From the NCBI GenBank assembly GCA_019746485.1, contig JAIERW010000005.1:15078-79077 (forward strand): a stretch of DNA of 64,000 bases, read 5' to 3'. The DNA comes from Candidatus Babeliales bacterium. Its GTDB lineage: Bacteria; Babelota; Babeliae; Babelales; RVW-14. Each line of letters starts with the position of its first letter. Position 1 is the stretch's first letter. A model generated the notes under the pieces. That model saw only the letters and a list, made by a program, of their open reading frames with translations, ran no database searches and was not told the DNA's origin. The position numbers and the translations under genes were made by a program. Positions 15,812 through 50,861 of this stretch are shown piece after piece.

Positions 15812-16954
15812 GTGAAAAGGAACAACTACTCCCCCTTTTTTACCGCCTTACTGCTCTTAGCAGCTTTCTGGCCTTTTGTCTCTCTGGGCCAAGAAGTGCT
15901 CCCACAACCCTGGACAACCAGCACCAATGAAATTGTTTTTGGCCAATCAGGCTCTTTTTCTGGCTCATTGGGCCTGTACGGCACCATTATTAAAAACGCA
16001 ATACAGCTTTGTTTTGATGCAGCAAACGAGCAAGGCGGCGTTAACGGCTATAAGTTGCGCCTAGAAAGCATGGAAGACAACGGCGATCCAGCACAAGCGG
16101 CCAATAACATTGCCCAATTGCGTGCCAAGGGCATTGATATGTTTTTGGGCAATATGGGCAGCCGCAGCATCGTAAAACTCTTGCCACAAATTGAAGCACA
16201 CGATATTGCTTTATTCTTTCCGTGGGGCGGCGACGAACAGCTCAGAAGCCAAAAGCTTTCTAGCATGATTAACGGACCAGGGCTTTTGGAGCCACAAATA
16301 AAAACGTTAGTCGACCATATTGTTAATAACGTCAAACAAAAAAAGATCGCTGTTTTTTACGCAGATGATGATTTTTCAGTCGGCGCAAAAGATGATCTGG
16401 TAGCTCAATTGAGTAGGCACGGCATTACACCAGTAGCACTCACTTCGTACAACCGTTTTACCATGGACATTGTTGCGGCAGCAGATCCACTGATCCAAAC
16501 AGACCCCAAGCTGGTAATATGCATTGCAACCAGTATGCCAACGGTACGCTTAATCAAGCATTTTTTTGAGCGCGGACATTACGCAACAACATTTTTTGGC
16601 ATCGATTCAACGTTGTTTGTAGGCAATATTCTGCAATCAAAGGGCATTGATTTTTACTATACATCGGCCACGCCAGACCCAGTTGCAAGCCAACTTTCTA
16701 TTGCAAGGCAGTACCGCGAAGACTTGAAACAATATATGCCAACCGAAACGCCCAACATTCTTTCGTTTACGTATTACCTAAGTGCCGCAATTATTGTTGA
16801 TGCACTCAAAAAACTAGACGGTCAACTAACCAAAGAAAACATTATTAACCAGATCGAAAACATGCAAAATTATAACCTTGGCGGATTTATGGTTAACTTT
16901 GACGCATCAACACGGCACGCTTACGGAAATCAAATTACGTTGATAAAAGGATAA
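15812..16954 (+). CDS. periplasmic binding protein, type I (LivK / ANF-receptor family), secreted
   Basis: GTG start with RBS aaagga. Signal peptide FFTALLLLAAFWPFVSLG. IVFGQSGSFSGSLGLYGTIIKNAIQLCFDAANEQGGVNGYKLRLESMEDNGDPAQAANNIAQL is typical of Leu/Ile/Val-binding-protein-like PBPs. Confidence 0.7.
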   Translation: MKRNNYSPFFTALLLLAAFWPFVSLGQEVLPQPWTTSTNEIVFGQSGSFSGSLGLYGTIIKNAIQLCFDAANEQGGVNGYKLRLESMEDNGDPAQAANNIAQLRAKGIDMFLGNMGSRSIVKLLPQIEAHDIALFFPWGGDEQLRSQKLSSMINGPGLLEPQIKTLVDHIVNNVKQKKIAVFYADDDFSVGAKDDLVAQLSRHGITPVALTSYNRFTMDIVAAADPLIQTDPKLVICIATSMPTVRLIKHFFERGHYATTFFGIDSTLFVGNILQSKGIDFYYTSATPDPVASQLSIARQYREDLKQYMPTETPNILSFTYYLSAAIIVDALKKLDGQLTKENIINQIENMQNYNLGGFMVNFDASTRHAYGNQITLIKG

Positions 16955-18045: not shown

Positions 18046-19227
18046 TCAATACCACGAATCAACATGCTCTAAACTAACCAACCATCCGCCATATTCGGGC
18101 GCAAAATAGCGTCTTGATTGAACTTCAAGCGTACGAAAAAATGGATGCCACTGATCAACAGTCACTCCTTCAAAGGCTCCGTACGGCAATGTTGATTTAT
18201 AAACCATCTGCTTGTCGGCCGAATAGGTAATAATAAATGTGTCACGCGTAATATCGCCGCAATTTGCTTTGTGAATACCATTGGTATCAAAAAGAAATAT
18301 GTCACCAGCTTTACCAAGCGCCTTAAAAACAACCGGTTCTTTACCAAACTTCTTTTGGTAATAGTCCAAATCACCCGGTATTCCAACGTATGTTTCATAA
18401 TCATGCGAAACGGCATGAGAGCCAAGAACGTACGACAAATGACGCGACCGCTCTTCAACATCACCCAACAAGATCATCATTTTCACACGCTGGCCAGATC
18501 TGTCATGATGCCAGTTAAAGATACTTACCGCTTTCCCGCCCGGCATGTAATGCGTAGCCCACCCTTTTACAATATAACCAACTTTGCCAAGATAATTATT
18601 AATTACTGAGCAAACCATTTCATTGCAACAAAAATCAACCAACGTTTGCGATAATTTGAAAGGATTGTTGCAATGGTAAACATTGGTTTCAGGCTCATAA
18701 TAATCATCTCGCCTTTTTTCTACCTTAATACCTCGCGCTCGCTGATCATCAATTGAATCAACAAATTTTTGAAAGTCTTTCTGCAGTTGAGCCAACTCGA
18801 CATCACTAATCAAGCCAGAAATACGAACTATACCATTGGCATTAAGCTCTTCAAGGTAAGCAAGCCCTTTTTCATCAAGTCGATCATCACAAAAACCAGG
18901 CTCTGGCAACCGTTGATAATATTCACGCACGCCATGCACAAAAGCTCTGGGAGCATTTTCAAGAAGTTGCTTATCACACAAACCATGACGCATAAGCAAT
19001 GCCGCAATTCGGTGGTCTGGGTTCTTGCCCCTAACTGCCAACGTAAAAAGATACGGATCAAGTTCTTGATTCTCTTGTCGATTTTCAAGCAACATTTTTA
19101 CCTGATCATAGTCACCCCACTCTATCGCACTGCTCAAATCATGAGAATTCAATTTCGTCGAAAAAACACAGAGCACAAAAAAAATATTCCCAAAAAAATT
19201 CACCCAACGCTTGAACTTTTTATTCAT
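18046..19227 (-). CDS. phytanoyl-CoA dioxygenase (PhyH)-like Fe(II)/2-oxoglutarate oxygenase with N-terminal signal/anchor
   Basis: Hydrophobic N-terminus WVNFFGNIFFVLCVFSTKLNS. HxD motif in NWHHDRSGQRVKMMILLGDV and a distal His in GDIFLFDTNGIHKAN. The N-terminal roughly 80 aa is weakly ankyrin-like (AIEWGDYDQVKMLLEN, LAVRGKNPDHRIAALLMRHG). Confidence 0.6.
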   Translation of the reverse strand: MNKKFKRWVNFFGNIFFVLCVFSTKLNSHDLSSAIEWGDYDQVKMLLENRQENQELDPYLFTLAVRGKNPDHRIAALLMRHGLCDKQLLENAPRAFVHGVREYYQRLPEPGFCDDRLDEKGLAYLEELNANGIVRISGLISDVELAQLQKDFQKFVDSIDDQRARGIKVEKRRDDYYEPETNVYHCNNPFKLSQTLVDFCCNEMVCSVINNYLGKVGYIVKGWATHYMPGGKAVSIFNWHHDRSGQRVKMMILLGDVEERSRHLSYVLGSHAVSHDYETYVGIPGDLDYYQKKFGKEPVVFKALGKAGDIFLFDTNGIHKANCGDITRDTFIITYSADKQMVYKSTLPYGAFEGVTVDQWHPFFRTLEVQSRRYFAPEYGGWLVSLEHVDSWY

Positions 19228-19296
19228 AATTCCTCCTCACACAATCCTTTTTAAAAAAACCACCTACACGCCAAAAAACTTTTATTATCAAGTCCT

Positions 19297-19373
19297 TGAC
19301 AAAGCTTTGTCATTTTAATTAACTTTTCATAATGTTGTCATAATGTTGTCATAGATTTTTAAAATTGACAAAG
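19297..19373. promoter_or_regulatory. operator-like repeats upstream of the Cys-rich family
   Basis: Perfect 16-bp palindrome tgacaaagctttgtca (19297-19312). Tandem tcataatgttg x2 then tcatag (19327-19353). A second ttgacaaag lies at 19365-19373. Confidence 0.45.
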
Positions 19374-19463
19374 ATAGGGAGGAGAATACGCGGAGGACAA
19401 AAAAGTTTTCTGTTCAGTTATGGGTAAGCAAAGACTTTATAATTAAAAAGGGAGAAGATCGCC

Positions 19464-20426
19464 ATGAATATGAAGAAAATTTTAGCACTTGCACTCGCGT
19501 TTGCTGTTTCACAATCAGGCTTGAAAGCAGATGAAACAACGCGCTTAATTGCTAAAGACCGTCAATTAATTACCAAGCATCTTCAAGTTGGTCAAAATGA
19601 AGATGGAAAAAGAAGAAATTTTGAAGCAACCGACAAAGCATTCTTTAGAAGAGGCCTGGTAAACGGTTCTGGCGGCAACCTTGATGAACAAGGTGTTTTT
19701 AAGTGCGGAAAACGTGAAGAAATAATGAGCATGTCATTCAACCCATCAACACAATTGATCTGCGTTGAATTTTGCGATTCAGGAGAAGCTGCGGCAGGCG
19801 CACTTATTGATGGGCTTGTTTTCTGCGGTGCAGCCACAACAGAAGATAACGAATTTGACAGCTCAATCGCACAAGTTATAACCAACATTGAACGCATGTA
19901 CCTCAACAATGGTACTGATGTTGACAATTGCTACCAAGATGGCTTCTATGAAACAATCAACACATCAACAGGTTGCGAAGCACAAGATTGCGACAATTTT
20001 TATGGATCAAATCTGAACAACGTTAGCTTTACCGAACACCCAATTCCACACGTTAACGACAACAAGAAAGTCTACATTGGCCTTTATAACGATGATGCAA
20101 AACAATTTTATTGCCAACAATATCCATTCGTGTTCCAAGATGGTGGCTGCGTGTTCCTAAACGTTAAGAGCTGCAACCTTAAAAGCGTAACCGTCGTTGA
20201 TTTGCCAAATGAAAACTTCAGCTCATTCCAAACAGTTTTGCAAGACAAAATTAAAGTCCAACTTAGCGGCTATAACATTTTCCAAATCTGGGCAGTTGCT
20301 GATGCAATTGTAGCAAACAACTATGCTGCAACATTGACAAACTTATTAGTAACCAACACCGAAGAATCAGTTTTGGAAGCTTGTAACTACATCCAAAACC
20401 TTGCTTGCCAAATATTCGGCTGCTAA
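19464..20426 (+). CDS. secreted cysteine-rich protein, family member 1 (most divergent)
   Basis: 320 aa. Signal peptide MNMKKILALALAFAVSQSGLKA. It shares family blocks with the next three genes: DRQLITKHLQVGQNEDGKRRNFE, FNPSTQLICVEFCD, VFCG, KKVYIGLYNDD, GGCVFLNVKSCNLKSVTVVDLP, VLQDKI and FQIW. Confidence 0.75.
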   Translation: MNMKKILALALAFAVSQSGLKADETTRLIAKDRQLITKHLQVGQNEDGKRRNFEATDKAFFRRGLVNGSGGNLDEQGVFKCGKREEIMSMSFNPSTQLICVEFCDSGEAAAGALIDGLVFCGAATTEDNEFDSSIAQVITNIERMYLNNGTDVDNCYQDGFYETINTSTGCEAQDCDNFYGSNLNNVSFTEHPIPHVNDNKKVYIGLYNDDAKQFYCQQYPFVFQDGGCVFLNVKSCNLKSVTVVDLPNENFSSFQTVLQDKIKVQLSGYNIFQIWAVADAIVANNYAATLTNLLVTNTEESVLEACNYIQNLACQIFGC

Positions 20427-20470
20427 ACGATAAGCAACTTTTGACACACGCAGTATTTTTCAAATCTAAT

Positions 20471-20498
20471 CGGGGCAGGTACAACAGTGCCTGCCCCG
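20471..20498 (+). terminator. conserved ggcagg/cctgcc hairpin after family member 1 (no clear T-tract)
   Basis: cggggcagg, 10 nt loop, cctgccccg. The core is the same as the hairpins after members 2 and 3. Confidence 0.4.
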
Positions 20499-20543
20499 AT
20501 TGACATAAACAAGTTAGCTACAAAAAAAATAAGGATACAGACC

Positions 20544-21527
20544 ATGAAGAATTTATCAGCAAAGATTGTGCTCTTAAGCATAATCGCACTCTCATTGCCA
20601 ACAGCGCATTCAAAAGATATGCCAACCCGCTTGGCCACAACCGATCGTCAAATTATCAATAACAATCTTCAAATTGGTAAAAACGACACCGACAAGACCA
20701 GAAGAGATTTAGAAGTTACACGCGAAACGTTTTTGCGTAAAAACCTGGTAGTTGGCAGTGGCAGTAATTTGGACGAACAAGGCAACAGAAATTGTGGATG
20801 CAACCGAACCATTGGCACCTATGATTTTAATCCCAATACCCAGCTTTTGTGCATAGAATTTTGCAACAATGACTCAGATAGCAATGGCGCTTGGATGGAT
20901 CTAAATTTCTGTGGCAAAGCAGTACCAAGAGATCAACAAGAAGAACTTGAATCAATTATTCCTATTTCTTCTACCTACACCGGCCTCTTTGTGTCAAGCA
21001 GCGATCCTGAAGACAACAGTGGTCTCTGGGCAAACTCCACCGTTATTCGTGACGACCAAGGCAATGACAACGGCCCAAGTGGCACCAGCTTATACAATTT
21101 TCGTTTTATAGAAGACTTATATCCTTATAAAACAGGACCATGCGTAGATAGCACCAAGGTATACGTTGGCATTTACGACAATGATGAAAACGACAAGGCA
21201 TTTTATCTTCAAAATGAATATGACTACGTTTTTCAAGAAGGCTGTCTGTTTGCCGACGTTAAATCTTGTAATATTAAGCACGTAAGCGTTGTCGATATTC
21301 CACAAGAATTTTTTACATTTGATCAAATTCTTCAAGACAAAATCGCATACATTGTGTGCAGCGAACAAAATAATGTTTTCCAAGTTTTTGGCGTTGCACA
21401 TTACATAGCAATCACCGCAGGCCTTGAAGCCGCACTAACAGCACTTCTTAATGGCAATGAGTCAGAAGTAGAACAAGCTTGCACTCAAATTTACGGCATT
21501 TGGCTTAATTTGTATGTTTGTGATTAA
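20544..21527 (+). CDS. secreted cysteine-rich protein, family member 2
   Basis: Start at the ATG at 20544 (RBS aagga, MKNLSAKIVLLSIIALSLPTAHS). Blocks TRLATTDRQIINNNLQIGKND..RRDLEVTRETF, NCGCNRT, FNPNTQLLCIEFCNNDSDSNGAW, NFCGK, LWANSTVIRDDQGNDN and GCLFADVKSCNIKHVSVVDIPQ. Confidence 0.8.
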   Translation: MKNLSAKIVLLSIIALSLPTAHSKDMPTRLATTDRQIINNNLQIGKNDTDKTRRDLEVTRETFLRKNLVVGSGSNLDEQGNRNCGCNRTIGTYDFNPNTQLLCIEFCNNDSDSNGAWMDLNFCGKAVPRDQQEELESIIPISSTYTGLFVSSSDPEDNSGLWANSTVIRDDQGNDNGPSGTSLYNFRFIEDLYPYKTGPCVDSTKVYVGIYDNDENDKAFYLQNEYDYVFQEGCLFADVKSCNIKHVSVVDIPQEFFTFDQILQDKIAYIVCSEQNNVFQVFGVAHYIAITAGLEAALTALLNGNESEVEQACTQIYGIWLNLYVCD

Positions 21528-21569
21528 TTCGTTGCAACTAAAACATTGAAATACATAGAAAAAACAAAG

Positions 21570-21598
21570 CGAGGCAGGTGAACACAACACCTGCCTCG
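21570..21598 (+). terminator. hairpin after family member 2
   Basis: cgaggcaggtg, loop aacacaa, cacctgcctcg, then tttact. Confidence 0.5.
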
Positions 21599-21624
21599 TT
21601 TACTATCCACAAGGACACATGCTT

Positions 21625-22614
21625 ATGAAAACTCTCTATGCAAAGATTGTGCTTTTAAGCATAATCACCTTAACTTTCACCGTAGCCCACGCAGAAGAAA
21701 GTATTACACGTCTCTCCCCAACCAACCGTCAAATCATAGAAAAAAACGTTCAAATTGGCCAAAACGACAAAAATGCCAACCGAAGAGATTTAGAAGTTAC
21801 TCGCGAAACATTTTGTCGCAACAAAGTTGTTATTGGGAGCGGCGGTAATATCGGTGATGATAACACCAGAAATTGTGGTTGCTGCCGAACACTCAGCGAA
21901 TTTGATTTTAACCCAAATACCCAACTTTTGTGCATAGAATTTTGTGATACTGACGTAAATAGTAATGGTGCATGGCTTGACATTAACTTCTGTGGTAAGG
22001 CAATCCCACGCAAAAGTCAATGCTATTTAGACCCAACAATACCTATCTCTTCAACTTATACCCGTTTTTTTGTTTCCTGTAGCGATCCTGCAGATGACAG
22101 CTACCTCTGGGCAAATTCTACCGTTATTCGTGACGACCAAGGAAATGATAACTGCCCAGATGGAACCTGCTTGTACAGTTTTCGTGTCATCGCTGCTCAA
22201 TATCCCTACATTCCAACACCAAGTACGCAAAGCACCAAAGTATATATCGGTCTTTATGACAACGACAGCTCAGACATGGCATTTTATTTAAAGAACTGTT
22301 ATGACTACATCTTTCTTAAAGGTTGTCTTTTTGTAGATGCAGTATCTTGTCAAATAAAACACATGAGCATTGTTAACATCCCACAAAATATTTTTGCTTT
22401 TGAGCAAATACTCCAAAATAAGATTATCAGCACCGTTTGCAACCAAGAAGGCAACAACGTCTTTCAAACTTTTGGCGTTGCAAAAAAAATTGCAGAAACT
22501 CAAGGACTTGCAGAAACACTCACGGATCTTCTTAAAGGTTCGCAAACGCAAGTGCAAAACGCGTGTGACCAAATTTTGGCAATCTGGCAACAGCTGTATA
22601 TCGTCATAACATAA
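21625..22614 (+). CDS. secreted cysteine-rich protein, family member 3
   Basis: MKTLYAKIVLLSIITLTFTVAHA. It has the same blocks as member 2 (NCGCCRT, LLCIEFCDTDVNSNGAW, NFCGK, LWANSTVIRDDQGNDNCPDG, GCLFVDAVSCQIKHMSIVNIPQ). The ATG at 21619 is an alternative start. Confidence 0.8.
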   Translation: MKTLYAKIVLLSIITLTFTVAHAEESITRLSPTNRQIIEKNVQIGQNDKNANRRDLEVTRETFCRNKVVIGSGGNIGDDNTRNCGCCRTLSEFDFNPNTQLLCIEFCDTDVNSNGAWLDINFCGKAIPRKSQCYLDPTIPISSTYTRFFVSCSDPADDSYLWANSTVIRDDQGNDNCPDGTCLYSFRVIAAQYPYIPTPSTQSTKVYIGLYDNDSSDMAFYLKNCYDYIFLKGCLFVDAVSCQIKHMSIVNIPQNIFAFEQILQNKIISTVCNQEGNNVFQTFGVAKKIAETQGLAETLTDLLKGSQTQVQNACDQILAIWQQLYIVIT

Positions 22615-22621
22615 AAAAAAT

Positions 22622-22651
22622 TGAGGCAGGTTTTTTAAAAAACCTGCCTCA
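22622..22651. terminator. perfect 30-nt palindromic hairpin after family member 3
   Basis: tgaggcaggtttttt/aaaaaacctgcctca. Confidence 0.55.
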
Positions 22652-22676
22652 GTCAAAATAACAAGGACACATGATT

Positions 22677-23696
22677 ATGAAAACTTTCTATTCAAAGATT
22701 GTGCTTCTTAGCATAATCACGCTCACAGCACCAACCGCACATGCAAAAGATATGCCAACACGCTTGGCCACAACCGACCGTCAAATTATCAACAACAATC
22801 TTCAAATTGGTAAAAATGACAGCGATAAAACAAGAAGAGACTTAGAAGTTACACGCGAAGCATTTTTGCGTAGTAACCTTATTGTAGGCAGTGGCAGCAA
22901 CTTGGACGAACAAGGCAACAGAAACTGCGGATGCAATAGAACTCTTGGGACATTTCCCTTTAACCCAAACACTCAACTTCTTTGCATAGAATTTTGCAAC
23001 AATGACAGCGACAGCAATGGGGCTTGGCTCAACATGACTTTCTGCGGCAAAGTAGCTCCAAGACCCGAAGAAGCGGAAGAAGCGCAAGAGGAACAAGAAG
23101 AACTGGAAGCGCTTATTCCCATATCTTCTACCTACACACGCCTTTTTGTATCCAGTTCCGATGTTACTGACAGCTATCTTTGGGCAAACTCTACCGTTAT
23201 TCGCGATGACCAAGGCAATGATAACTGTCCAAACGGCGCTTGCATAAGTTCTTTTGACTTCATCAATGACCAATATCCCTACATAACAAATACACAAACA
23301 GAAAGCACAAAAATCTATGTTGGCATTTACGATAACAACCAAAACGATTTTGCTTTTTATCTTCAAAACACCTACGACTATCTCTTTACCCAAGGTTGTC
23401 TCTTTGTTGACCAAATATCGTGCAATATTAAAAATATCAAAGTCGTTGATATTCCACAGGATTTTTTCTCTCTTAGCCCAATTTTACGAGAAAAAATCGT
23501 TTCGGTTATTACTGGGCTGGAAGAAAACCACAATGTCTTTCAGATTTTTGGGGTAGCACAACTGATAGCAACGTACCCAGAACTTGCCAACTTACTCACT
23601 GAATTTCTTCTTTCTGAAGATGAAGAACTAATAGAAGAAGTTTGCTTCTTCATTGAGTTAATTTGGTACTATTTATATGTCGCAATGATAATATAA
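22677..23696 (+). CDS. secreted cysteine-rich protein, family member 4 (with acidic EEAEEAQEEQEELE insert)
   Basis: MKTFYSKIVLLSIITLTAPTAHA. The N-terminal roughly 115 aa is nearly identical to member 2 (KDMPTRLATTDRQIINNNLQIGKND..KTRRDLEVTRE). The ATG at 22671 is an alternative start. Confidence 0.8.
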   Translation: MKTFYSKIVLLSIITLTAPTAHAKDMPTRLATTDRQIINNNLQIGKNDSDKTRRDLEVTREAFLRSNLIVGSGSNLDEQGNRNCGCNRTLGTFPFNPNTQLLCIEFCNNDSDSNGAWLNMTFCGKVAPRPEEAEEAQEEQEELEALIPISSTYTRLFVSSSDVTDSYLWANSTVIRDDQGNDNCPNGACISSFDFINDQYPYITNTQTESTKIYVGIYDNNQNDFAFYLQNTYDYLFTQGCLFVDQISCNIKNIKVVDIPQDFFSLSPILREKIVSVITGLEENHNVFQIFGVAQLIATYPELANLLTEFLLSEDEELIEEVCFFIELIWYYLYVAMII

Positions 23697-23712
23697 ATAT
23701 CCAACGTTCATG

Positions 23713-23750
23713 AAAAAAGGGACTGTCATAACCGACAGTCCCTTTTTTTT
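23713..23750. terminator. bidirectional rho-independent terminator between family member 4 and lon
   Basis: aaaaaa-gggactgtc-ataacc-gacagtccc-tttttttt. Confidence 0.85.
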
Positions 23751-23761: not shown

Positions 23762-26215
23762 TTATTTCTTTTTTGACGTTTTCTTAGTCACTGGTGACTT
23801 TTTAGTCGTCTTCTTTTTCTTCTTTTTTGGCGCTACTTTGCGCGTTCTAAACGGCGATTCAGTTAACGCGTGCTTTAATACATCGTCAATGGTAGTTGCG
23901 TAAACAACAGTCAGCTTTGCATCAAGCTCATTTTTGAACTCTTGCACATCTCGCTCATTAGCTTTAGGCACAATAACCGTCATTTTGTCAAAACGAATTG
24001 CTGCCAGCAGCTTTTCTTTAAGCCCACCAATAGCCAACACACGCCCATTTAACGTAGCTTCACCAGTCATGGCTACATCTGCCTTCACGGGAATCTTGGT
24101 CAAAGCTGAAATCAAACCGGTTGCCATGGTAACACCTGCCGAAGGGCCATCTTTTGGAATAGCGCCTTCAGGAATATGAATATGAATATCAACATCAGCA
24201 TAGAAATTGTCTTTAAGGCCAAAATCTTTAGCACGTGAACGAGTATAGCTCATGGCGGCCTGGGCCGACTCTTGCATAACTTCGCCAAGCTGACCGGTAA
24301 GCGTTAAAGCACCCTTGCCCGGCAAAATGGTTACTTCTATTTCTAGAACGTCTCCACCAACTTCTGTCCATGCCAACCCGGTAACTAAACCTATCGCATT
24401 TTCTGCCTTGGTGTCGGGGCGACGGAACGGCGGCGAGCCAAACCATTTTTCAATAAGCTCATCAGTAACTACAACAGATGTGCACTTTTTATTGCTCAGC
24501 ATTTCTTGAATACACTTACGTGCAACTTTTGCCAGGCCCCGCTCAAGCTGACGAACACCCGCTTCCTTGGTGTACTCATCAATAATCTTTACGAGTACCT
24601 TGTCTGACATATTTACATGCGAAGACTCAAGGGCATGCTCTTTAAATACTTTTGGCAACAAAAACTTTTTGGCTATAGCAATTTTTTCTTCAAGCGTATA
24701 ACCAGAAAGATTAATCATTTCCATACGATCAAGCAGCGGATATGGAATATTGTCTGCCACATTGGCGGTAGTAATAAACATAACTTTAGACAAATCGTAT
24801 CCAACTTCTAAAAAGTTGTCTGAAAAGTCTTTGTTTTGTTCCGGATCAAGCACTTCAAGTAACGCTGATGCTGGATCACCTCTAAAATCCATAGCCATTT
24901 TGTCAATTTCGTCGAGCAAAATGATCGGATTAATAACACCAGCTTTTTTCATAACTTGAATAATTTTTCCTGGCATAGCACCAATGTAGGTTCTACGATG
25001 TCCGCGAATTTCTGCTTCATCACGCATACCACCCAACGAAATACGAACCATTTTGCGACCAAGCGCGTCGGCAATTGATTGGGCAAGAGAAGTCTTACCA
25101 ACACCCGGAGGGCCCGCTAAACACAAAATTGGGGCACGCTTGAGCTGATCTTTGGCAAACTTGCGAGCAGCCAAAAATTCAATAACACGCTCTTTTGGTT
25201 TTTTCATGCTGGCATGAGACGAATCAAGCATCGCTTCAGCTTGTTTTAAGCTTACCGTATCTTTAGTTCCCTTGTGCCATGGCAACTCGATAAGCCAGTC
25301 AACATAATTTCTGCTCACCGAAGCTTCTGGCGAAGTTGGCTGCATTTGTTCAAGACGCTTAAGTTCTGCATCAACCTTTTCCATAGCTTCAGCAGGTAAC
25401 TTGCATTTATTAGCACGCTTACGCAAGTCAGCAATCTCAAGCTGATAATCTTCGCGACCAAGTTCGCGCTGAATAGCACGCATCTGTTCGGTAAGATAGT
25501 AATCACGCTGATGCTTTTCAACTTGGCTTTGTACACGCTTACGAATACTTTTTTCAGCCTTTAAAATCTCAAGTTCACTTCTCAGCAAAACCGCCAAGCG
25601 CAAAGCACGTTCTTTAATATCAATAGTTTCTAAAATTTGCTGACGTTCGTAAAAATCAAGGTGCATATGCACCGCAATTGTGTCAGCCAGATAGTCAAGA
25701 TCTTGTGGTCCTTTAAAAAGTCCCAAAACATCGGTAGACATTTTTTCGTTCAAATTGACGTACTCTTTGAATAGCTCATAAAGATTACGCCACAGGGCTG
25801 TGTTATCGGCAGAATCTTCTACCGGAACTGGAATTAAATCTTCAGCCAAAACACTCAAATAATCGTCTGAATTGGTAACTTCAACAATGCGTGAGCGCGC
25901 CAAACCTTCAATCAAAATTTTCAGCGTGCCATTGGCCATGCGAGCAACTTGCAAAATATGCGCACGCGTCCCATAGTCAAAAAGATCTTCCTTGCCAGGC
26001 TTATCAACATCTGAAGACCGCTGAGCAGTTACAAAAACTTGCTTATTGGCAGCCATGGCAGCATCAACCGCTTTAATTGAAAAGTCGCGACCAACAACAA
26101 CAGGGATTATACTCTTGGGTAATGCAACAAGATTACGCAGGGGCAAAACAGGCAAAACAACCTGACTACCCTTTTCATAGCCTTGTTCTATTCCGTGATT
26201 ATCAGGTTTCTTCAT
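23762..26215 (-). CDS. lon: ATP-dependent Lon protease (LonA) with lysine-rich C-terminal extension
   Basis: 817 aa. N-terminal LON domain (LPVLPLRNLVALP). Walker A GPPGVGKTSLAQSIA, Walker B ILLDEIDK, and protease active-site PKDGPSAGVTMATGLISAL. The C-terminal tail is RTRKVAPKKKKKKTTKKSPVTKKTSKKK. Confidence 0.95.
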   Translation of the reverse strand: MKKPDNHGIEQGYEKGSQVVLPVLPLRNLVALPKSIIPVVVGRDFSIKAVDAAMAANKQVFVTAQRSSDVDKPGKEDLFDYGTRAHILQVARMANGTLKILIEGLARSRIVEVTNSDDYLSVLAEDLIPVPVEDSADNTALWRNLYELFKEYVNLNEKMSTDVLGLFKGPQDLDYLADTIAVHMHLDFYERQQILETIDIKERALRLAVLLRSELEILKAEKSIRKRVQSQVEKHQRDYYLTEQMRAIQRELGREDYQLEIADLRKRANKCKLPAEAMEKVDAELKRLEQMQPTSPEASVSRNYVDWLIELPWHKGTKDTVSLKQAEAMLDSSHASMKKPKERVIEFLAARKFAKDQLKRAPILCLAGPPGVGKTSLAQSIADALGRKMVRISLGGMRDEAEIRGHRRTYIGAMPGKIIQVMKKAGVINPIILLDEIDKMAMDFRGDPASALLEVLDPEQNKDFSDNFLEVGYDLSKVMFITTANVADNIPYPLLDRMEMINLSGYTLEEKIAIAKKFLLPKVFKEHALESSHVNMSDKVLVKIIDEYTKEAGVRQLERGLAKVARKCIQEMLSNKKCTSVVVTDELIEKWFGSPPFRRPDTKAENAIGLVTGLAWTEVGGDVLEIEVTILPGKGALTLTGQLGEVMQESAQAAMSYTRSRAKDFGLKDNFYADVDIHIHIPEGAIPKDGPSAGVTMATGLISALTKIPVKADVAMTGEATLNGRVLAIGGLKEKLLAAIRFDKMTVIVPKANERDVQEFKNELDAKLTVVYATTIDDVLKHALTESPFRTRKVAPKKKKKKTTKKSPVTKKTSKKK

Positions 26216-26761
26216 GTTTTATTCTTAATTTTATTAGTTTTAGTAATCAACATACGTTTGAACCCTATGATTTTACAACAATAAAATAGGCTTGTAAATA
26301 CGAGAAAAAAACGACTAGATCGACAAAAAGTCACCCCATCTTACAAACAAGCCTGCACCAACAAAGCACAAATAGTATTCTACCTGAAACAAACACCCTT
26401 ATTTATACGAAAAATCAACAACAATCAACAAAATCCCCACTTTTTCCAATTGACTTTATACCCGAGCACTTTATACTGAAACTATCTAAAACATAGGACT
26501 TGTAGGCCCTTTTATTTAATTTCACCACCATAATGAAGTTTAATAAGTACGATACGTTTAATAAGTACACGGCCATAGCTCTCAGCGGGTGCTCTAATCC
26601 GCCATCACTTTGCACGCCATTATTTCTAGCACAAAAATTTTTTAAATTTCATTTTTCTTTTTTACGAAGTCGGGTATCTTGTTGTTCCCAGCTTTTCTTA
26701 ACAGATAGAAAAGACAGGCGTTACCAAATTATTACCAATAATCCTTTTTTATGGAGTGATC

Positions 26762-28192
26762 ATGCAAGAAAAGCTCTCCGGTAAGTTATATAAGTTATGG
26801 GGCATTAAGCGAGAGTTTCTTCTCAAAATATTGCTACTTTCAGCAACGTACTTCTTTTTAATGGCTTGCCATGTGATTTGGAAGCCACTTAAATACTCGC
26901 TCTTTGGGCAAATTGTTGGCACCAGCTCCGTCCCTTTCGCTAAAATTTCTTCTCTGCTTTTCTTAATTCCTCTGATCTTACTTTACTCCAAACTTGTCGA
27001 CTGGCTCAGACGCCACCATCTCCTCTATTTTTTTACTATATCTCACGCACTTGGCGGTCTATTTTTTTACTACTTCATCTCTCATCCCGTTTACGGCATT
27101 GCAAATACTGACACAGGACCAAGTCGTTATATTGGATGGCTCTTTTATTTCTTTATGGAAAGCTTCGACGCCTTTCTTTCAACAACATTCTGGTCATTTG
27201 CTGACTCAGTAAACAACGCTAATGACGCAAAATATTATTATGGCTTTTTTGTTTCAGGTTCAAAAATTGGTGGCATGCTTACCGCAGCAACATTATACTT
27301 TGTGCTCACGGGCGCAACAACAGAAAGCCAGTTAAGCATTATTCCTAACGCACTTCTGATTGGCAGCTGCATGCTCTTTGCCGCAGCAGCATGTATCTAC
27401 TTTCTCGTCAAAAAAGTTCCTGAAGGCATCATGCACGGCTATGAAAAAGTATATCAACTTGAAAAACATAAAGATGTCGAACACATCCCCACGCCAACGC
27501 GGCTTAAAAGCTTTTTACGCTCAATCACCAGCGCCTTTGATGGCTTAACCATCATGGTAAAGAGTTCTTATGTTATGGGTATTTTTTCACTCGTATTTTT
27601 TTATGAAATTATCATAGCAATTTTTGATTACCTGGTTATGATGCGTGCCGAAAGCGCACATCCTTCAATCGGCTCAATGACGGCTTTTTATGCACTATAT
27701 TTCTTCATCATGAATGGTATTGGCTTGTTGATCAGCTTGTTTGGTACAACCCCATTGTTGCGTATTTTGGGCATTAGAATGTCTCTCTTTGCCTTCCCGC
27801 TTATCTGCCTGATTATGCTCGTAACTACCTTTATATTTCCTCAAGGATGGATTTTGTTTGGTACCTTGATCGGTTTACGCGCCTTTAACTATGCACTCAA
27901 CCACCCAACACGAGAAGTCTTATATATTCCAACCACCAAAGATATCAAGTTTAAAGCAAAAACATGGACCGATGCCTTTGGGTCTCGTATTGCTAAAGGA
28001 TTTGGTTCCTTCTTCAACTTGGCGCTTCAAAGTGTTGCTCCGGCTATTGCCTTATTCTCAAGCATCACATTCAGCCTTGGCTTAACAGGCATCTGGCTGG
28101 TTATTACCTACTTTTTAGGTAAGACATTGCAAAGCGCAATCGATGAAAATCGCATTATCGGCGAAACAGAAGAGTCTAAAACCAATAGGTAG
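26762..28192 (+). CDS. ntt: nucleotide transporter, ATP/ADP translocase (TLC/NTT) family, copy 1
   Basis: About 12 TM segments. FWSFADSVNNANDAKYYYGFFVSGSKIGG resembles the chlamydial/rickettsial FWGFANEIT..EAKRFYALFG.GAN. REVLYIPTTKDIKFKAKTWTDAFGSRIAKGFGS resembles EMAYIPLD.E.K.KGKAAIDVV..R.GKSGGS. The comparison is from memory. Start is the ATG at 26762, with the GTG at 26756 as an alternative. Confidence 0.75.
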   Translation: MQEKLSGKLYKLWGIKREFLLKILLLSATYFFLMACHVIWKPLKYSLFGQIVGTSSVPFAKISSLLFLIPLILLYSKLVDWLRRHHLLYFFTISHALGGLFFYYFISHPVYGIANTDTGPSRYIGWLFYFFMESFDAFLSTTFWSFADSVNNANDAKYYYGFFVSGSKIGGMLTAATLYFVLTGATTESQLSIIPNALLIGSCMLFAAAACIYFLVKKVPEGIMHGYEKVYQLEKHKDVEHIPTPTRLKSFLRSITSAFDGLTIMVKSSYVMGIFSLVFFYEIIIAIFDYLVMMRAESAHPSIGSMTAFYALYFFIMNGIGLLISLFGTTPLLRILGIRMSLFAFPLICLIMLVTTFIFPQGWILFGTLIGLRAFNYALNHPTREVLYIPTTKDIKFKAKTWTDAFGSRIAKGFGSFFNLALQSVAPAIALFSSITFSLGLTGIWLVITYFLGKTLQSAIDENRIIGETEESKTNR

Positions 28193-28222
28193 TAATCAAC
28201 TAAGTACAACAAAAGGAAGAGT

Positions 28223-29617
28223 ATGATTTTTAGATTTGCCAGGCATATTTCACGAACAATGGAAGAAAAATTACAAATAGATTCAAATGAGATAAAAAAA
28301 TTATTTCTTTTGGCGTTTTCATTTTTCTTCATAATAGCGTCATACTCAATTCTTCGCTCACTTAAAACGTCCATCTTTTTAGGGCTTGTAGGCAAAGAAT
28401 ACCAACCAATGACACGCCTTATTGCTATTGTTATTATGTTTCCAGCAATGCTTGGCTACGCCAAACTGGTTGATAAATTTAAACGCGAACAAATTGTTTA
28501 TACCATCATTGGTATTTATGCTGTTGCAAGCCTTGTCTTTGCTGTACTTTTAGCCCATCCCACCATTGGCGTCCAAAACACTTTCACCAGCCCCTACCGC
28601 TTTATTGGCTGGGGTTTTGAAATTTTCATGGATCTTTACTCAGCCCTGGTGGTAAGCACCTTCTGGAGCTTTGTTAACTCAATCTGCACGCCAATGTTTG
28701 CGGAAAAAGGATACGGCACCATTGTAGCTATCTCTAAAATAGGAGGCATTGCTGCAGCTCTTATTGGCTTATTAATAACAAGATCTGGCCTTGAAACATC
28801 ATCATCAATTCCACTTCTTACCGCAAGCGCTGGCATTTTCTTATTCCTTTCAATTCTCTTGGTACGTTCTATTATCAAAACCATCCCAGATTCATATTTG
28901 CACGGTTATCAAGCAGCGTTTGTTGAAGAGAAGAAGGCTGAAAAGCAACTTAAAAAACCGGGTATCTTTGAAGGCTTACGCTTGATGCTTACCGAGCCGT
29001 ATGTTCTTGGAATTTTCGGCATTTTGTACAGCATGGAAATTATTTCAATCATTTTTGACTATCAAATGCAAGTATTAATGTCTGTTGAAATGAACAACCA
29101 CATTGGCTCTATGAGCTCATTTATGTTTATTTATACAGCAACATTTCAAGTCTGCACCTTCTTATTTGCATTTTTGGGCACCTCAACGTTGTTGAAAAAA
29201 ATTGGGGTTCGTGCTTGCTTAATTATCACTCCGCTTGTACTGGGTCTTCTTTCACTCATCATGCTTACCTGGCCATCGCTCTGGATAACCTTTTTCATTT
29301 TGGTTATTTTACGCGCTCTGAACTACGGCTTCAACCAGCCAGTACGCGAAATACTGTATATTCCAACAGTTAAAGATATCCAATTTAAATCAAAAGCTTG
29401 GATCGAGTCGTTTGGTAAAACCTTTTCCAAGGCCTCCGGTTCAGCCTTTAGTTGGATTTCTATAACCACCAACCCGCTCTTGTGCATCCGAACCAACGCT
29501 ATATTTTCCTTTGCCATTAGCGCTTTTTACCTGGTTGTGGTATTTTTCTTGGGCCGACGCTATGCAAAAACAGTTGAAAATAATGAAGTTATCGGCACAA
29601 AGAGATATAAATCTTGA
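28223..29617 (+). CDS. ntt: nucleotide transporter, ATP/ADP translocase (TLC/NTT) family, copy 2
   Basis: A paralog of the previous gene: FWSFVNSICTPMFAEKGYGTIVAISKIGG and REILYIPTVKDIQFKSKAWIESFGKTFSKASGS. About 12 TM segments. Confidence 0.75.
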   Translation: MIFRFARHISRTMEEKLQIDSNEIKKLFLLAFSFFFIIASYSILRSLKTSIFLGLVGKEYQPMTRLIAIVIMFPAMLGYAKLVDKFKREQIVYTIIGIYAVASLVFAVLLAHPTIGVQNTFTSPYRFIGWGFEIFMDLYSALVVSTFWSFVNSICTPMFAEKGYGTIVAISKIGGIAAALIGLLITRSGLETSSSIPLLTASAGIFLFLSILLVRSIIKTIPDSYLHGYQAAFVEEKKAEKQLKKPGIFEGLRLMLTEPYVLGIFGILYSMEIISIIFDYQMQVLMSVEMNNHIGSMSSFMFIYTATFQVCTFLFAFLGTSTLLKKIGVRACLIITPLVLGLLSLIMLTWPSLWITFFILVILRALNYGFNQPVREILYIPTVKDIQFKSKAWIESFGKTFSKASGSAFSWISITTNPLLCIRTNAIFSFAISAFYLVVVFFLGRRYAKTVENNEVIGTKRYKS

Positions 29618-41317: not shown

Positions 41318-43018
41318 ATGAGATTTATGCGCAAACGTAAAACACTTCTTACTACCTGGCTGCTGCTTGTTTGCAGCATAGCTAATCTTATGTCGCTCAA
41401 CCAAGACCTCGTCCAAAAAAGACCAAAACTAACCATTATCATGGTAGTTGACCAGTTTGCACACCACTACATCCAAAAGCTCAGACCCCACCTAAACCAC
41501 GGGATCAAGATGCTTCTTGAGCAAGGCGTTTGTTATGAAAATGCCTGCCACCCCCACGCCATTCCTGAAACCTGCCCAGGCCACAGCTCGTTGAGCACCG
41601 GAACCGTGCCTACCTACCACGGCGTTACCGGCAACCGCTGGTACAACCAAGACGGCAAACCAGTAGAATTTATTGAAGATGAAGGCAGAGCCTGCAGTGC
41701 CGAAGTTTTTAGAGATCAAGAAACAACGTATGATGACCATCAACGCTCTTCAAGCCACATCATGGTCGACGCTTTTGCCGATCAATTTGTACTTTCGTCG
41801 CCACAAGAAAAACGCAATATTGCTATCTCGCTTTCCATAAAATCAAAGGCTGCCATGGCTACCGCTAACCGCATGGGCAAAGCAATTTGGTTTGACGATA
41901 AAACCGGCCGCTTTACCTCAAGCAAACATTATTACAACAAACTGCCCAACTGGCTTGAAGAGTTTAACGAACAAAAGGCGCCCACCAAGCTTGAAAACGT
42001 TCGCTGGGAAACGCTTTACCCACGCACCAGCGCAGCGTATGATTTTCCGCACATTGATAACTATGATTATGCGGCATTAGATTTTCCATTAATTTCAGAA
42101 AAACCAATTCCTATCGATCGCGATAACGAATGCCCGTACGATCTTTACAACAAAACACCCCACTCAAACCAGCTTCTGTTTGATTTAGCAAAAAAATGTA
42201 TCGACAGCACCATCGCCCCCAACGCGCCCAACGATATGGTTATGTGGCTGTGCTTGAGCAGCCTTGATTTACTTGGCCATTATTATGGCCCAGACAGCTT
42301 GGAAGCGATAGACATGGTGTACCATTTAGACCAACAAATTAAAGAGTTTATGTTATATGCACAATACAAAATGGGTAAGTCGAACGTGCTCTTTGCACTA
42401 ACCGGCGACCACGGCATACAACCAATTCAAGAGCTTTCATACAAAAAAGGCATTACGCAGGCCCAGCGCGTTATGGTTCAGCCATTGATTGAAAAAATGA
42501 ATGAGTTTATTGAAGAAAAGTACGATCTTAAAAATGCAGTACAAACATTTGAATCAACCTACTTTGTAATGAACAAACAACAAATGGCAACCAAAAATAC
42601 TGAAGAACAAGCAGCTATCTTGACTGATCTTAAAGACATGTTACTTCAAGAAGCGTCAATCAAGCGCGTGTGGACGCGCGACGAGCTGCACAAAGCAACG
42701 TTTCGTACACAAGATGTTGAAAGCTATTACAAGAACCATTTGTACGACTCGCGCCTGGGCGAGCTGATTATCATGCCACAACCTTACTGCCTGCTCACAC
42801 GTTATCCAAAAGGCTGCTCGCACAATACGCCCTACGACTACGACACACACGTACCGCTTATTGTGTATCAGCACGGGCGCTTTGCGCCAAAAACAATCAC
42901 GCAAAAAGTTTTAATACCACAACTGCCCACCACGCTTTCGTATCTTTTGGGCGTTGTGCAACCATCTGCCGGCACCTTTCCTGTGCTGCCAGGCATTTTT
43001 GACGAGGAAAGCCCATGA
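41318..43018 (+). CDS. alkaline-phosphatase superfamily protein, nucleotide pyrophosphatase/phosphodiesterase (NPP)-like, secreted, copy 1
   Basis: Signal LLTTWLLLVCSIANLMS. VVDQFAHHY; metal/nucleophile region PETCPGHSSLSTGTVPTYHGVTGNRWY (T.P.H..l.TG..P..HG...N); LDLLGHYYGP; LTGDHG; HNTPYDYDTHVPLIVY. Confidence 0.7.
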   Translation: MRFMRKRKTLLTTWLLLVCSIANLMSLNQDLVQKRPKLTIIMVVDQFAHHYIQKLRPHLNHGIKMLLEQGVCYENACHPHAIPETCPGHSSLSTGTVPTYHGVTGNRWYNQDGKPVEFIEDEGRACSAEVFRDQETTYDDHQRSSSHIMVDAFADQFVLSSPQEKRNIAISLSIKSKAAMATANRMGKAIWFDDKTGRFTSSKHYYNKLPNWLEEFNEQKAPTKLENVRWETLYPRTSAAYDFPHIDNYDYAALDFPLISEKPIPIDRDNECPYDLYNKTPHSNQLLFDLAKKCIDSTIAPNAPNDMVMWLCLSSLDLLGHYYGPDSLEAIDMVYHLDQQIKEFMLYAQYKMGKSNVLFALTGDHGIQPIQELSYKKGITQAQRVMVQPLIEKMNEFIEEKYDLKNAVQTFESTYFVMNKQQMATKNTEEQAAILTDLKDMLLQEASIKRVWTRDELHKATFRTQDVESYYKNHLYDSRLGELIIMPQPYCLLTRYPKGCSHNTPYDYDTHVPLIVYQHGRFAPKTITQKVLIPQLPTTLSYLLGVVQPSAGTFPVLPGIFDEESP

Positions 43019-44727
43019 TTAAAAAAATAGCCAAAAGCCTGGCAGCAATTTTTGTGATTAGCATACTGCTGGCATACGTGCGCCCCTCGAGTGAGCTCGG
43101 GACTAAAGGCGAGGTTAAGGTAGCAAAACCAAAAATCGTTCTCGTTTTTGTAGTCGACCAATTTGCCCATCACTACCTGGCTATGCTCAGGCCTTACTTG
43201 AACTTTGGTTTAAAAAAGCTTGTTGAAGACGGCATAAATTTTGAGCGCGCCAACCATCCGCACGGCGCACCGGCAACCGCAACCGGCCACGCTACCTTGA
43301 GCACCGGCACCTGCGCCAAAGACCATGGCTACATTTTAAATGCCTGGGCCGACGGCAACGGTAAAAAGATTCGCGCAACGCAAGACGACGCCCAAACAGC
43401 AGCAGTGCTGGGCCGCAACGGACCTATGAACTATGGCGCTTCGCCAAAGCTTTTAATGGTAGACACACTTTCAGACCAACTGGTAGCACAATCTACACCC
43501 GAGCACAAAAATACCGTTTTCTCGCTCTCGTTTAAAACGCGCGCCGCCATTGCTATGGCAGGCAAGGGGGGGCATGCTATTTGGTTTAACGACGATGAAA
43601 ATATGTTTACCAGCAGCAAAGCATACTACCAAGAAATTCCTGAATGGGTGCAAGATTTTAATAAGCGCAACGACGTTGCAAAAATTAAAGAAATCGACTG
43701 GCAGTTATTCCATCCCGAAAATCATGAAATCTACGAGCAATTTGCCAACAAAGATTACCGCTTTGCCGGCACCACGCTCCGTCTGGCTGGCAATAAAACA
43801 GCCTTAAATTTTGGTCAACGCGAAAAGGCGGGAAAATATGATGATCAGCAATTATTTCAACGTACACCCATGGCCAACGGTATGCTCGCCGATTTAACCA
43901 AAGAATGTATTGATAAGCATTTTGAAAAAGACGGAAGTGAAACACTTTTTGTATGGGTTGGTTTTTCGGCACTGGACAAAATTGGCCACGTGTTTGGGCC
44001 CAACAGCTTAGAAATGATCGACACTATTTGTCATTTGGACAAACAAATTGAAGATTTAATGAACTACGCACAAAACAAAGCAGGCGCACACAATGCTCTT
44101 TTTGCTGTTTCAGGCGACCATGGCGTTTCACCAATTCCTGAGTTAATGCACGAGCGAGGCTTTGGGTTTGTCAGCCGCCTGCTCAATAAAGATTTAACCA
44201 ACGGTATGAACAACCTGATTGAAGAAAAGTATGGCATAAGCGGCATTGTAAAAACATTTAAAACGACCATGTTTTATCTCAACAAGCAAGCTCTGGCAAA
44301 AGTTGATCAAGAAAAACAGAACGCAATTATTGAAGATTTAAGAAATTATTTACAAGCGCAACCGGGCATGTGTAAAGTTTTTACAACAAAAGAATTAGTT
44401 GAGTCAACCTTTGACCCGACTTCGTTTGAATATTTGTATCAAAACCAAACGTATGTGGGCCGTACCGGCGACTTGATTTGCATGCCAAACATGTACTCAT
44501 TTATTGCCAAACGCGCCAACGGCACCTCGCACAAAACGCCGTACGACTACGACACACACGTGCCACTTATTTTGTATCAAGCAGGTTCACTTGAAAAGAA
44601 ACGGATTATTGAAAAGGTTTCTACAACACAACTAGCACCAACACTGGCCAAAATTTTGCAGATTAACAAGCCTTCGGCAGCAGCGCAGCAAGTACTACCA
44701 GGCATTTTTGAAGAAGAAGGAAATTAA
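43015..44727 (+). CDS. alkaline-phosphatase superfamily protein, NPP-like, secreted, copy 2
   Basis: A paralog of copy 1 with a 4-nt ATGA overlap. VVDQFAHHY, HGAPATATGHATLSTGTCAKDHGYILNAW, LDKIGHVFGP, VSGDHG, HKTPYDYDTHVPLILY. Confidence 0.7.
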   Translation: MIKKIAKSLAAIFVISILLAYVRPSSELGTKGEVKVAKPKIVLVFVVDQFAHHYLAMLRPYLNFGLKKLVEDGINFERANHPHGAPATATGHATLSTGTCAKDHGYILNAWADGNGKKIRATQDDAQTAAVLGRNGPMNYGASPKLLMVDTLSDQLVAQSTPEHKNTVFSLSFKTRAAIAMAGKGGHAIWFNDDENMFTSSKAYYQEIPEWVQDFNKRNDVAKIKEIDWQLFHPENHEIYEQFANKDYRFAGTTLRLAGNKTALNFGQREKAGKYDDQQLFQRTPMANGMLADLTKECIDKHFEKDGSETLFVWVGFSALDKIGHVFGPNSLEMIDTICHLDKQIEDLMNYAQNKAGAHNALFAVSGDHGVSPIPELMHERGFGFVSRLLNKDLTNGMNNLIEEKYGISGIVKTFKTTMFYLNKQALAKVDQEKQNAIIEDLRNYLQAQPGMCKVFTTKELVESTFDPTSFEYLYQNQTYVGRTGDLICMPNMYSFIAKRANGTSHKTPYDYDTHVPLILYQAGSLEKKRIIEKVSTTQLAPTLAKILQINKPSAAAQQVLPGIFEEEGN

Positions 44728-44751
44728 CCCTCGACCATAACAGGAGTTTAT

Positions 44752-46833: not shown

Positions 46834-46865
46834 AACTAACGTAAACAAAGCAAAAAAAACTATGA

Positions 46866-46892
46866 GGGGATGCATATTGGCATCCCCTTTTT
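46866..46892 (+). terminator. rho-independent terminator after protein A
   Basis: ggggatgc-atattg-gcatcccc followed by ttttt. Confidence 0.85.
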
Positions 46893-46916
46893 CATTAAAG
46901 AAGTTTCCTCAAACCA

Positions 46917-46946
46917 TTGAGTTTGCTGAGTGCAAATTGCTATAAT
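46917..46946 (+). promoter_or_regulatory. candidate sigma-70 promoter for protein B
   Basis: ttgagt, 18 nt spacer, tataat. The same ttgagt-N18-ta(t/c)aat layout recurs at 49183. Confidence 0.5.
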
Positions 46947-47000
46947 TAAGCCATGAATAATGCTGCCAGGAATTTTTGAAAAAGAAAAAGGGAACTGCCC

Positions 47001-49073: not shown

Positions 49074-49112
49074 CTCACACCAGCATGAAGCCCACGTAAA
49101 CTGAATAGAATT

Positions 49113-49150
49113 AAAACCAAGAGGGGTGCGCGCGCACCCCTCTTGGTTTT
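49113..49150. terminator. long palindromic terminator after protein B
   Basis: aaaaccaagaggggtgcg/cgcgcacccctcttggtttt. Confidence 0.85.
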
Positions 49151-49182
49151 AATTAAAAATATTTCTTTTATAAATAAATTTA

Positions 49183-49212
49183 TTGAGTTTTATCAACCAC
49201 AACTGCTACAAT
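49183..49212 (+). promoter_or_regulatory. candidate sigma-70 promoter for protein C
   Basis: ttgagt, 18 nt spacer, tacaat. Confidence 0.5.
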
Positions 49213-49280
49213 CAAAGTAGTGAATATGAACAAATACACACATTGGTACTTTTTAAATAGTATTTTAAAGGAGATAAACC

Positions 49281-50714: not shown

Positions 50715-50734
50715 AAACTTTAAAAACTACTACG

Positions 50735-50772
50735 ACGGGGGATGCATTTGCGCATCCCCCGTTTTCTTTTTT
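50735..50772 (+). terminator. rho-independent terminator after protein C
   Basis: acgggggatgc-atttgc-gcatcccccgt followed by tttctttttt. The stem is related to the terminator after protein A. Confidence 0.85.
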
Positions 50773-50778
50773 AAACCG

Positions 50779-50808: not shown

Positions 50809-50861
50809 TATTACAGATAGAAAGACAAAAACCACATAAAAAATTAAAAAAAGGTACCTAC

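Follow-up and report, generated by a model that had tools for sequence, protein, structure and literature searches.

A tandem array of four predicted exported orphan proteins in a Candidatus Babeliales bacterium, with signs of segmental gene conversion

Four intact, consecutive open reading frames (ORFs) on the + strand fill positions 19464-23696 of a 64,000-nucleotide stretch of the genome of an uncultured Candidatus Babeliales bacterium associated with amoebae (contig JAIERW010000005.1, positions 15,078 to 79,077; hereafter the window, whose own numbering is used throughout). Their products are four related proteins with predicted Sec signal peptides. Our searches showed that they belong to a very small orphan family which, as far as public data reach, is limited to one sub-lineage of the Babeliales (Dependentiae). 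Comparison of related loci indicated that the array grew by tandem duplication and that gene conversion has been acting on one segment of two of its members. We tentatively read the family, at somewhat short of an even chance, as non-enzymatic binding or structural proteins of the envelope or the extracellular space that are Sec-exported and linked to a host-dependent lifestyle. Dependentiae live inside protist cells as obligate parasites or symbionts, and next to nothing has, to our knowledge, been learned about the ways in which they attach to these hosts or manipulate them.

The first gene, m1 (19464-20426, + strand), encodes 320 amino acids (aa) and belongs to subfamily A (m1-type); the parts assigned to its product are a signal peptide, a beta-sandwich and a C-terminal helical bundle. 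The other three genes, also on the + strand, belong to subfamily B: m2 (20544-21527; 327 aa), m3 (21619/21625-22614; 331 aa with the first ATG as start, 329 aa with the NCBI start) and m4 (22671/22677-23696; 341/339 aa), which carries an acidic EEAEEAQEEQEELE loop. The m3 protein was a 100% match to K2X40_01630 of a Candidatus Babeliales metagenome-assembled genome (MAG; Dependentiae/TM6). Shine-Dalgarno motifs precede the start of every gene of the array. For m2, an AAGGA motif lies upstream of the ATG at 20544, a start that agrees with the NCBI call. The GTG at 20487, given as the start in the ORF list, was discarded: it lies inside the upstream hairpin 1 (see below), lacks a Shine-Dalgarno motif and is at odds with the orthologs.

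Full-length amino acid identity was 62% for m2/m3, 69% for m2/m4 and 58% for m3/m4, as against 31-38% between m1 and the other three. Between the m2 and m4 proteins, identity was 87% in residues 1-115 but 48% beyond residue 231. A previous reading of the window, made without database searches (the sequence-only reading), had described four tandem paralogs with a much more divergent first member, a near-identity of members 2 and 4 over some 115 N-terminal residues followed by divergence, and an acidic insertion in member 4; ORFs, identities and alignment bear out each of these points. It had also listed motif blocks common to all four proteins. This needs narrowing, since several of the blocks (NCGC.RT and LWANSTVIRDDQGNDN) occur in m2-m4 and not in m1. 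Further family copies elsewhere in the 64 kb window were searched for and none was found.

Among 5.8 billion proteins, a word-indexed search found six family proteins only, from the MAG of the window and one sister MAG. When 1.84 billion cluster representatives were searched exhaustively with an HMMER profile, seven clusters were recovered at E<=1e-3; iterated searches added one more cluster, and a metagenome scan one more locus (L007). In the exhaustive profile search most Dependentiae were without the family, and no relatives from Chromulinavorax or Babela surfaced. A scan of GTDB species representatives, IMG/VR and phage records gave zero family relatives. All carrier genomes are MAGs labelled Babeliales or 'bacterium'. 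Below, gene names are prefixed W for the window, S for the sister locus L001, T for L003 (CP064957.1, a 1.45-Mb genome) and J for L007.

In long contigs the family sits within a syntenic block of the order FtsW, SbcC-like, Peripla_BP_6, a 361-aa membrane protein, PhyH-like (- strand), the family, Lon (- strand), TLC, TLC, rpsB. The number of family copies was four in the window, four in L001, three in L003, one in L005 and L006, and at least two in L007 (one complete copy and part of a second). Two short contigs contained a family gene adjoining lon, the only such gene seen there; the distant member P0011 lies in a different context.

Orthologs of m1 are S_m1 (76% identity), T_m2 (57%) and J_m1 (L007 235-1224), the last of which paired with T_m2 in the family tree with 100% bootstrap; those of m2, m3 and m4 are P0004 (78%), P0002 (80%) and P0006 (68%), respectively. 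The tree resolved subfamily A (W_m1, S_m1, T_m2 and L007 gene 1, with T_m1 more distant), subfamily B (m2-m4 of W and S, plus T_m3, P0008 and P0015) and a deep group (P0010, P0011 and P0012). Within the deep group, P0012 is single-copy at the site, and no second copy was seen on the short contigs that carry P0010 and P0011. The order A then B is kept in every two- to four-copy genome. Because the tree falls into A, B and the deep group, the sequences show, as reconstructed here, a single ancestral gene giving rise to A and B, followed by a tripling of B ahead of the split between the lineages of the window and L001. According to the intergenic alignment, duplication of the gene included its 3' flank (TTGACAYACGYAG ... 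hairpin). As judged from the sequences, then, copy number went from one to three or four through tandem duplication of gene, 3' flank and hairpin, which is the gene-plus-hairpin unit that the sequence-only reading had proposed.

The history of m2 and m4 differs between the two ends of the genes. Over alignment columns 31-120, nucleotide (nt) identity was 74-92% for W_m2/W_m4 and 84-94% for S_m2/S_m4, and 65-80% for orthologous pairs. Over columns 331-390 it was 77-93% for orthologs and 51-58% for paralogs. An indel, TQNNPEV, is common to S_m2 and S_m4 only. In neighbour-joining trees of the N-terminal segment, m2 and m4 clustered by genome (bootstrap 77.5% and 100%), whereas the C-terminal segment clustered by ortholog (85, 99.5 and 100%). 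Since the identities and trees of the two segments disagree, we conclude from the alignments that gene conversion homogenises the N-terminal third of m2 and m4 within each genome, the C-terminal parts descending as separate orthologous lines. This accounts for the mosaic conservation of the two members that had been noted earlier, and it offers a clean, small case of concerted evolution confined to one protein segment.

To describe selection, we used ratios of nonsynonymous to synonymous substitution rates (dN/dS, omega; Nei-Gojobori) between window genes and their L001 orthologs, gene-wide and per 40-codon block. The values were 0.15 (m1), 0.14 (m2), 0.10 (m3) and 0.17 (m4), with a maximum of 0.27 in any 40-codon block and a range of 0.10-0.27 over orthologs and paralogs; because dS was about 1, near saturation, these are approximate, and they hold at the gene-wide and block level. 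The flanking genes gave 0.03 (Lon), 0.04 (the 361-aa membrane protein, which resembles a pentameric ligand-gated ion channel, pLGIC), 0.06 (SbcC-like), 0.11 (PhyH-like) and 0.15 (the Peripla_BP_6 periplasmic binding protein, PBP). Protein identity of the family between the window and L001 was 76-78% (neighbours, 80-100%), between the window and L003 51-57% (neighbours, 67-94%) and between the window and L005 24-31% (neighbours, 39-67%). The family is thus the fastest-changing protein of the syntenic block, and the codon comparisons fit a constraint that is relaxed yet clearly purifying. The diversifying selection that had been proposed for the array is not supported by these dN/dS values, which do not fit it gene-wide, and we rejected that reading. 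That the genes are decaying, non-functional duplicates or annotation noise in MAGs, as an orphan family might suggest, is effectively refuted: in four genomes or more every copy is intact, and the genes have low omega, Shine-Dalgarno motifs and a conserved order.

All four N-termini have two Lys/Arg residues within the first eight positions, then a 12-residue hydrophobic core (mean Kyte-Doolittle hydropathy 2.2-2.6) and an AxA-type cleavage site (AHS|K, AHA|E, AHA|K and LKA|D). Inspection of the four N-termini revealed no lipobox. By these sequence features the array proteins have the n-, h- and c-regions of Sec-exported proteins, in keeping with the signal peptide originally assigned to each gene product. 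The mature window proteins contain 3.2-5.2% Cys. Conserved cysteines were initially seen as a hallmark of the proteins, and within the clade of the window this holds; across the family, Cys counts range from 4 (T_m1) to 27 (P0012) and there are zero invariant Cys columns. This Cys table rules out family-defining cysteines. Some cysteines co-occur, being gained and lost together: 177 and 182, and, in the deep group, 126, 158 and 207. The predicted Cys pairs are 177-182 and 234-242. Such co-varying pairs are compatible with disulfides in an oxidising compartment, although phylogenetic non-independence limits their weight. Because pairs such as C177/C182 come and go together, the proteins would be expected to work beyond the cytoplasm, in a compartment that is oxidising.

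The same features could describe periplasmic or outer-envelope structural proteins that are cross-linked by disulfides, as are chlamydial OmcA/OmcB, and make no direct contact with the host. A signal peptide with no further export signal, a Cys content of 3-5% with co-varying pairs, purifying selection and a stable chromosomal site amid housekeeping genes would all suit such proteins. We nevertheless regard this account as unlikely, if a serious competitor. The cysteines are not conserved family-wide (four in T_m1, no invariant column), there is neither a lipobox nor a predicted membrane segment, and Pfam similarity to the chlamydial proteins is lacking. The absence of the family from most Dependentiae would be odd for a core envelope component, and the family evolves faster than all its neighbours.

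No known domain was recognisable in the proteins, as the sequence-only reading had held. A Pfam scan of the window members and 8-16 relatives gave best E-values of 0.04-0.16, far under gathering scores; an NCBIfam scan of the members returned no match; PHROG gave a best E of 0.0097, in one of 16 members, and nothing significant; and a search of PDB sequences with the family profile found no match. An AlphaFold model of mature m2, built with 14 sequences, had a mean predicted local distance difference test score (pLDDT) of 75.4 and a predicted template modelling score of 0.73, and supersedes a previous seven-sequence model (pLDDT 61). Residues 1-42 had pLDDT <50. Approximately ten strands, several of them 12-14 residues long, lie between residues 45 and 228, and helices at 232-301 were modelled with pLDDT 80-96. 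The model shows three parts: a conserved N-terminal segment of about 45 aa without a modelled fold, a predicted beta-sandwich of about 185 aa and a predicted C-terminal helical bundle of about 70 aa.

Residues that are invariant family-wide are nearly all Gly, Phe, Pro or Leu, together with one Ser (S241); a single Glu and a single Gln reach about 90% conservation. Because the invariant residues include no catalytic-looking set, we infer that the proteins are non-enzymatic. This bears on another account, in which the proteins are secreted to bind carbohydrates or degrade glycans, have a concanavalin-A-like lectin/glucanase sandwich and act on glycans of a host or prey. Foldseek searches of the PDB with two models gave lists of mostly generic beta-sandwiches, with GH12/GH16 glucanases, legume lectins and carbohydrate-binding modules (CBMs) most frequent among them, and the model does have long curved strands. 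However, the best E-value was 0.028, template modelling (TM) scores were at most 0.22 and root-mean-square deviations (rmsd) were 8-27 A, which is the level of noise. There is no invariant acidic catalytic pair, the one Glu being just about 90% conserved, and no Pfam or CAZy-type domain was found. We consider a glycan-directed function improbable.

The N-terminal segment has the pattern TRL..DRQI..N.QIG.N...RRDLEVTRETF..NLV.GSG.N. Its stretch RRDLEVTRETF...GSGxN is the most conserved of the protein; it is also what conversion homogenises and what the model leaves unfolded. In P0010-P0012, Gly-rich strand repeats of the type xLxVxGxxxLxGxTxIG stand in place of this segment, before the sandwich. 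For these reasons the homogenised segment is probably a shared module for assembly or anchoring, through which the paralogs might co-assemble; the diverging sandwich and helical parts would then carry the specificity of each paralog.

A segment that is conserved and unstructured, and G-rich repeats before the sandwich in P0010-P0012, would also be expected of trimeric fibre or knob adhesins akin to the fibre heads of phages and giant viruses, with the N-terminus as a trimeric stalk and the sandwich as the receptor-binding head. Foldseek against BFVD returned weak partial matches to giant-virus ORFans, YadA-like Clandestinovirus proteins and phage tail fibres or spikes (E 3e-4 to 1e-2, probability <=0.97). 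For these matches the TM score was at most 0.28 on the query and below 0.5 on all targets, and rmsd was 7-13 A for the top ones; no relative was found in PHROG, phage records or IMG/VR, and the likeness of the repeats to fibres is putative. We see only a slim chance that the family consists of such adhesins. A bolder proposal, to which we give similarly little credence, is a new fold class of modular surface assembly. In it, the N-terminus kept by conversion would let the m1-type and m2-type proteins co-assemble as hetero-oligomeric fibres or knobs whose divergent heads bind different protist structures. If this were true, copy number at the locus would tune host range in the Babeliales.

The reading of the family as non-enzymatic, Sec-exported binding or structural proteins has several points against it. 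Function, localisation and expression are putative. The signal peptides were assigned by visual inspection and hydropathy alone and, as the export signal is that of Sec only, the proteins may remain in the periplasm. The structural model was built on just 14 sequences, the omega values share the near-saturation of dS, and the idea of oligomerisation rests on high conservation and low pLDDT plus the fibre-like repeats of P0010-P0012. The kept synteny is a matter of the general collinearity of close genomes and not of functional linkage. Even so, a surface or host-interaction role is a reasonable view of these sequences. In itself the family merely adds to the many orphan exported families known from this phylum, and it has no bearing on a long-standing open question. 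Because it evolves faster than its neighbours and has been shaped by duplication and gene conversion, this lineage-specific, multi-copy family is a sensible candidate for work on host interaction.

The intergenic regions of the array are themselves structured. Three copies of the motif GGCAGG-N(2-14)-CCTGCC, with spacers of N(10-12), are present in the 64 kb window (0.02 expected). They directly follow m1, m2 and m3 and are found at no other place in the window, in agreement with the hairpins first noted after these genes. Predicted free energies of the three hairpins are -22.5 to -30.7 kcal/mol, with z-scores of -8 to -10. Hairpin 1 (20467-20502, + strand) has a 16-bp stem with a GGGGCAGG/CCTGCCCC core and no U-tract (-30.7 kcal/mol, z -9.7); L001 keeps its stem with a changed loop, as does L003 after T_m2. 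Hairpin 2 (21567-21601, +) has a 14-bp stem with a GAGGCAGG/CCTGCCTC core, is followed by UUU only (-25 kcal/mol, z -8.3) and is kept in L001. Hairpin 3 (22620-22653, +) has a 15-bp stem with the same GAGGCAGG/CCTGCCTC core, a 5' A-run and no 3' U-tract (-22.5 kcal/mol, z -8.9); another hairpin (ATCGATGC/GCATCGAT) takes its place in the sister genome. Across the three genomes stems are thus kept while loops vary, and this persistence, together with the exchange of hairpin 3 for another, suggests that the hairpin structure itself is under maintenance.

Each of the three hairpins has the GC-rich stem-loop of an intrinsic terminator but lacks a U-tract immediately 3' on the + strand, where the tails are GAUUGACA, GUUUACUA and AGUCAAAA. 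A terminator scan called hairpins 2 and 3 on the - strand only. An Rfam search of the region gave no match. By contrast, a canonical bidirectional intrinsic terminator with a 16-bp stem, A and T runs and T8 (23712-23749; -24 kcal/mol) is common to m4 (+) and lon (-). Since the intercistronic hairpins lack the + strand U-tracts that distinguish the terminator after m4, they are, on sequence grounds, most likely partial terminators or 3'-end stabilisers that set expression levels gene by gene.

The 236-bp spacer between the divergent PhyH-like gene (-) and m1 (+) (19228-19463) contains a GGGAG Shine-Dalgarno motif before the m1 ATG, a perfect 16-bp palindrome, TGACAAAGCTTTGTCA (19297-19312), and two copies of the direct repeat ATAATGTTGTC. 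A third TGACAAAG lies at 19366, 54 nt downstream of the palindrome, so that three of the four copies of TGACAAAG in the window fall in this spacer. The spacer is near-identical in L001. In L003 it is recognisable upstream of T_m1 and duplicated before T_m2, an m1-type gene. The region of the TGACAAAGCTTTGTCA palindrome is a candidate operator with a putative regulatory role.

On the m1 side, the array is bordered by a PhyH-like Fe(II)/2-oxoglutarate dioxygenase gene (18046-19227, - strand; Pfam PF05721, E 1.2e-7), which is syntenic in L001, L003 and L005. Its product has a hydrophobic, signal-like N-terminal segment, and the L005 ortholog has ankyrin repeats; this protein, divergently encoded from the array, may be an exported hydroxylase effector. 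Further upstream, a Peripla_BP_6/ANF_receptor PBP (15812-16954, +) is followed 4 nt on by the 361-aa membrane protein, ending at 18043. The latter had no Pfam match; in the PDB, its residues 138-322 matched GLIC, the proton-gated pentameric ligand-gated channel of Gloeobacter (E about 1e-4). The pair of PBP and pLGIC-like genes is kept in L001, L003 and L005 and could serve an intracellular bacterium as a channel system that senses ligands.

On the m4 side, the conserved convergent neighbour is the gene for Lon protease (23762-26215, -), whose C-terminus (23762-23830, - strand) is a lysine-rich tail, KKKKKKTTKKSPVTKKTSKKK, unusual for a bacterial Lon. In the single-copy genome L005, three short ORFs (131, 85 and 63 aa; L005 11403-12454) lie between the family gene and lon. 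Tested as decayed family copies, they proved not to be family remnants; by eye they look like fragments of an SH3/NlpC-P60-type protein. Beyond lon, two tandem TLC-family ATP/ADP translocase paralogs (26756-29617, +) are present in all related loci. Translocases of this family are a hallmark of energy parasitism. Elsewhere in the window, two Phosphodiest (PF01663) paralogs lie in tandem (41318-44727, +); after them, up to 58972 (+), come seven ORFs of 309-965 aa with no Pfam match at 1e-4. The region 41318-58972, which has a higher GC content (45-48%) along with a strong A-over-T skew of about 0.3, is perhaps a second cluster of orphan genes.

Tandem paralogous surface proteins of intracellular bacteria are known from Ehrlichia (OMP-1/P28) and Anaplasma (Msp2/P44), where they are beta-barrel porins (Pfam Surface_Ag_2). 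The array resembles these systems in its head-to-tail paralogs of about 30 kDa with signal peptides, at a fixed locus of a host-dependent bacterium, in its segmental gene conversion and in the alternation of conserved and variable segments. Tandem exported paralogs and segmental conversion are thus found in both, whereas diversifying selection is not found in the array. Nor is there any relation in sequence or predicted fold: the array proteins have no Pfam match and are modelled as soluble-looking sandwich-plus-helix proteins. Copies of the array family number one to four; conversion homogenises its conserved N-terminus rather than making antigenic variants; omega is low, with no hypervariable segments by dN/dS; and the hosts are protists, which lack adaptive immunity.

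Chlamydial OmcA and OmcB are Cys-rich proteins of the outer membrane complex. Like them, the array proteins are predicted to be exported, Cys-containing proteins of an intracellular bacterium in which disulfide bonding is likely; they differ in having no homology to OmcA/OmcB (no Pfam match), no lipobox and no cysteines common to the family. With concanavalin-A-like lectins, glucanases and CBMs, the commonest non-significant Foldseek neighbours in the PDB, the model shares an all-beta sandwich of similar size. The scores are at noise level, however, catalytic residues are absent and the array proteins add a C-terminal helical bundle.

Closest in setting are the secreted ORFans of Chromulinavorax destructans, which belongs to the same phylum and shows the same pattern: 44% of its coding sequences have signal peptides, and its predicted secretome is enriched in ORFans (PMC6561590). 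The array family is absent from the descriptions in that paper (PMC6561590). Given such an ORFan-enriched secretome, an orphan exported family is to be expected in Dependentiae. The array is of a familiar kind, made up of exported orphan proteins that have multiplied in tandem in a bacterium dependent on its host.

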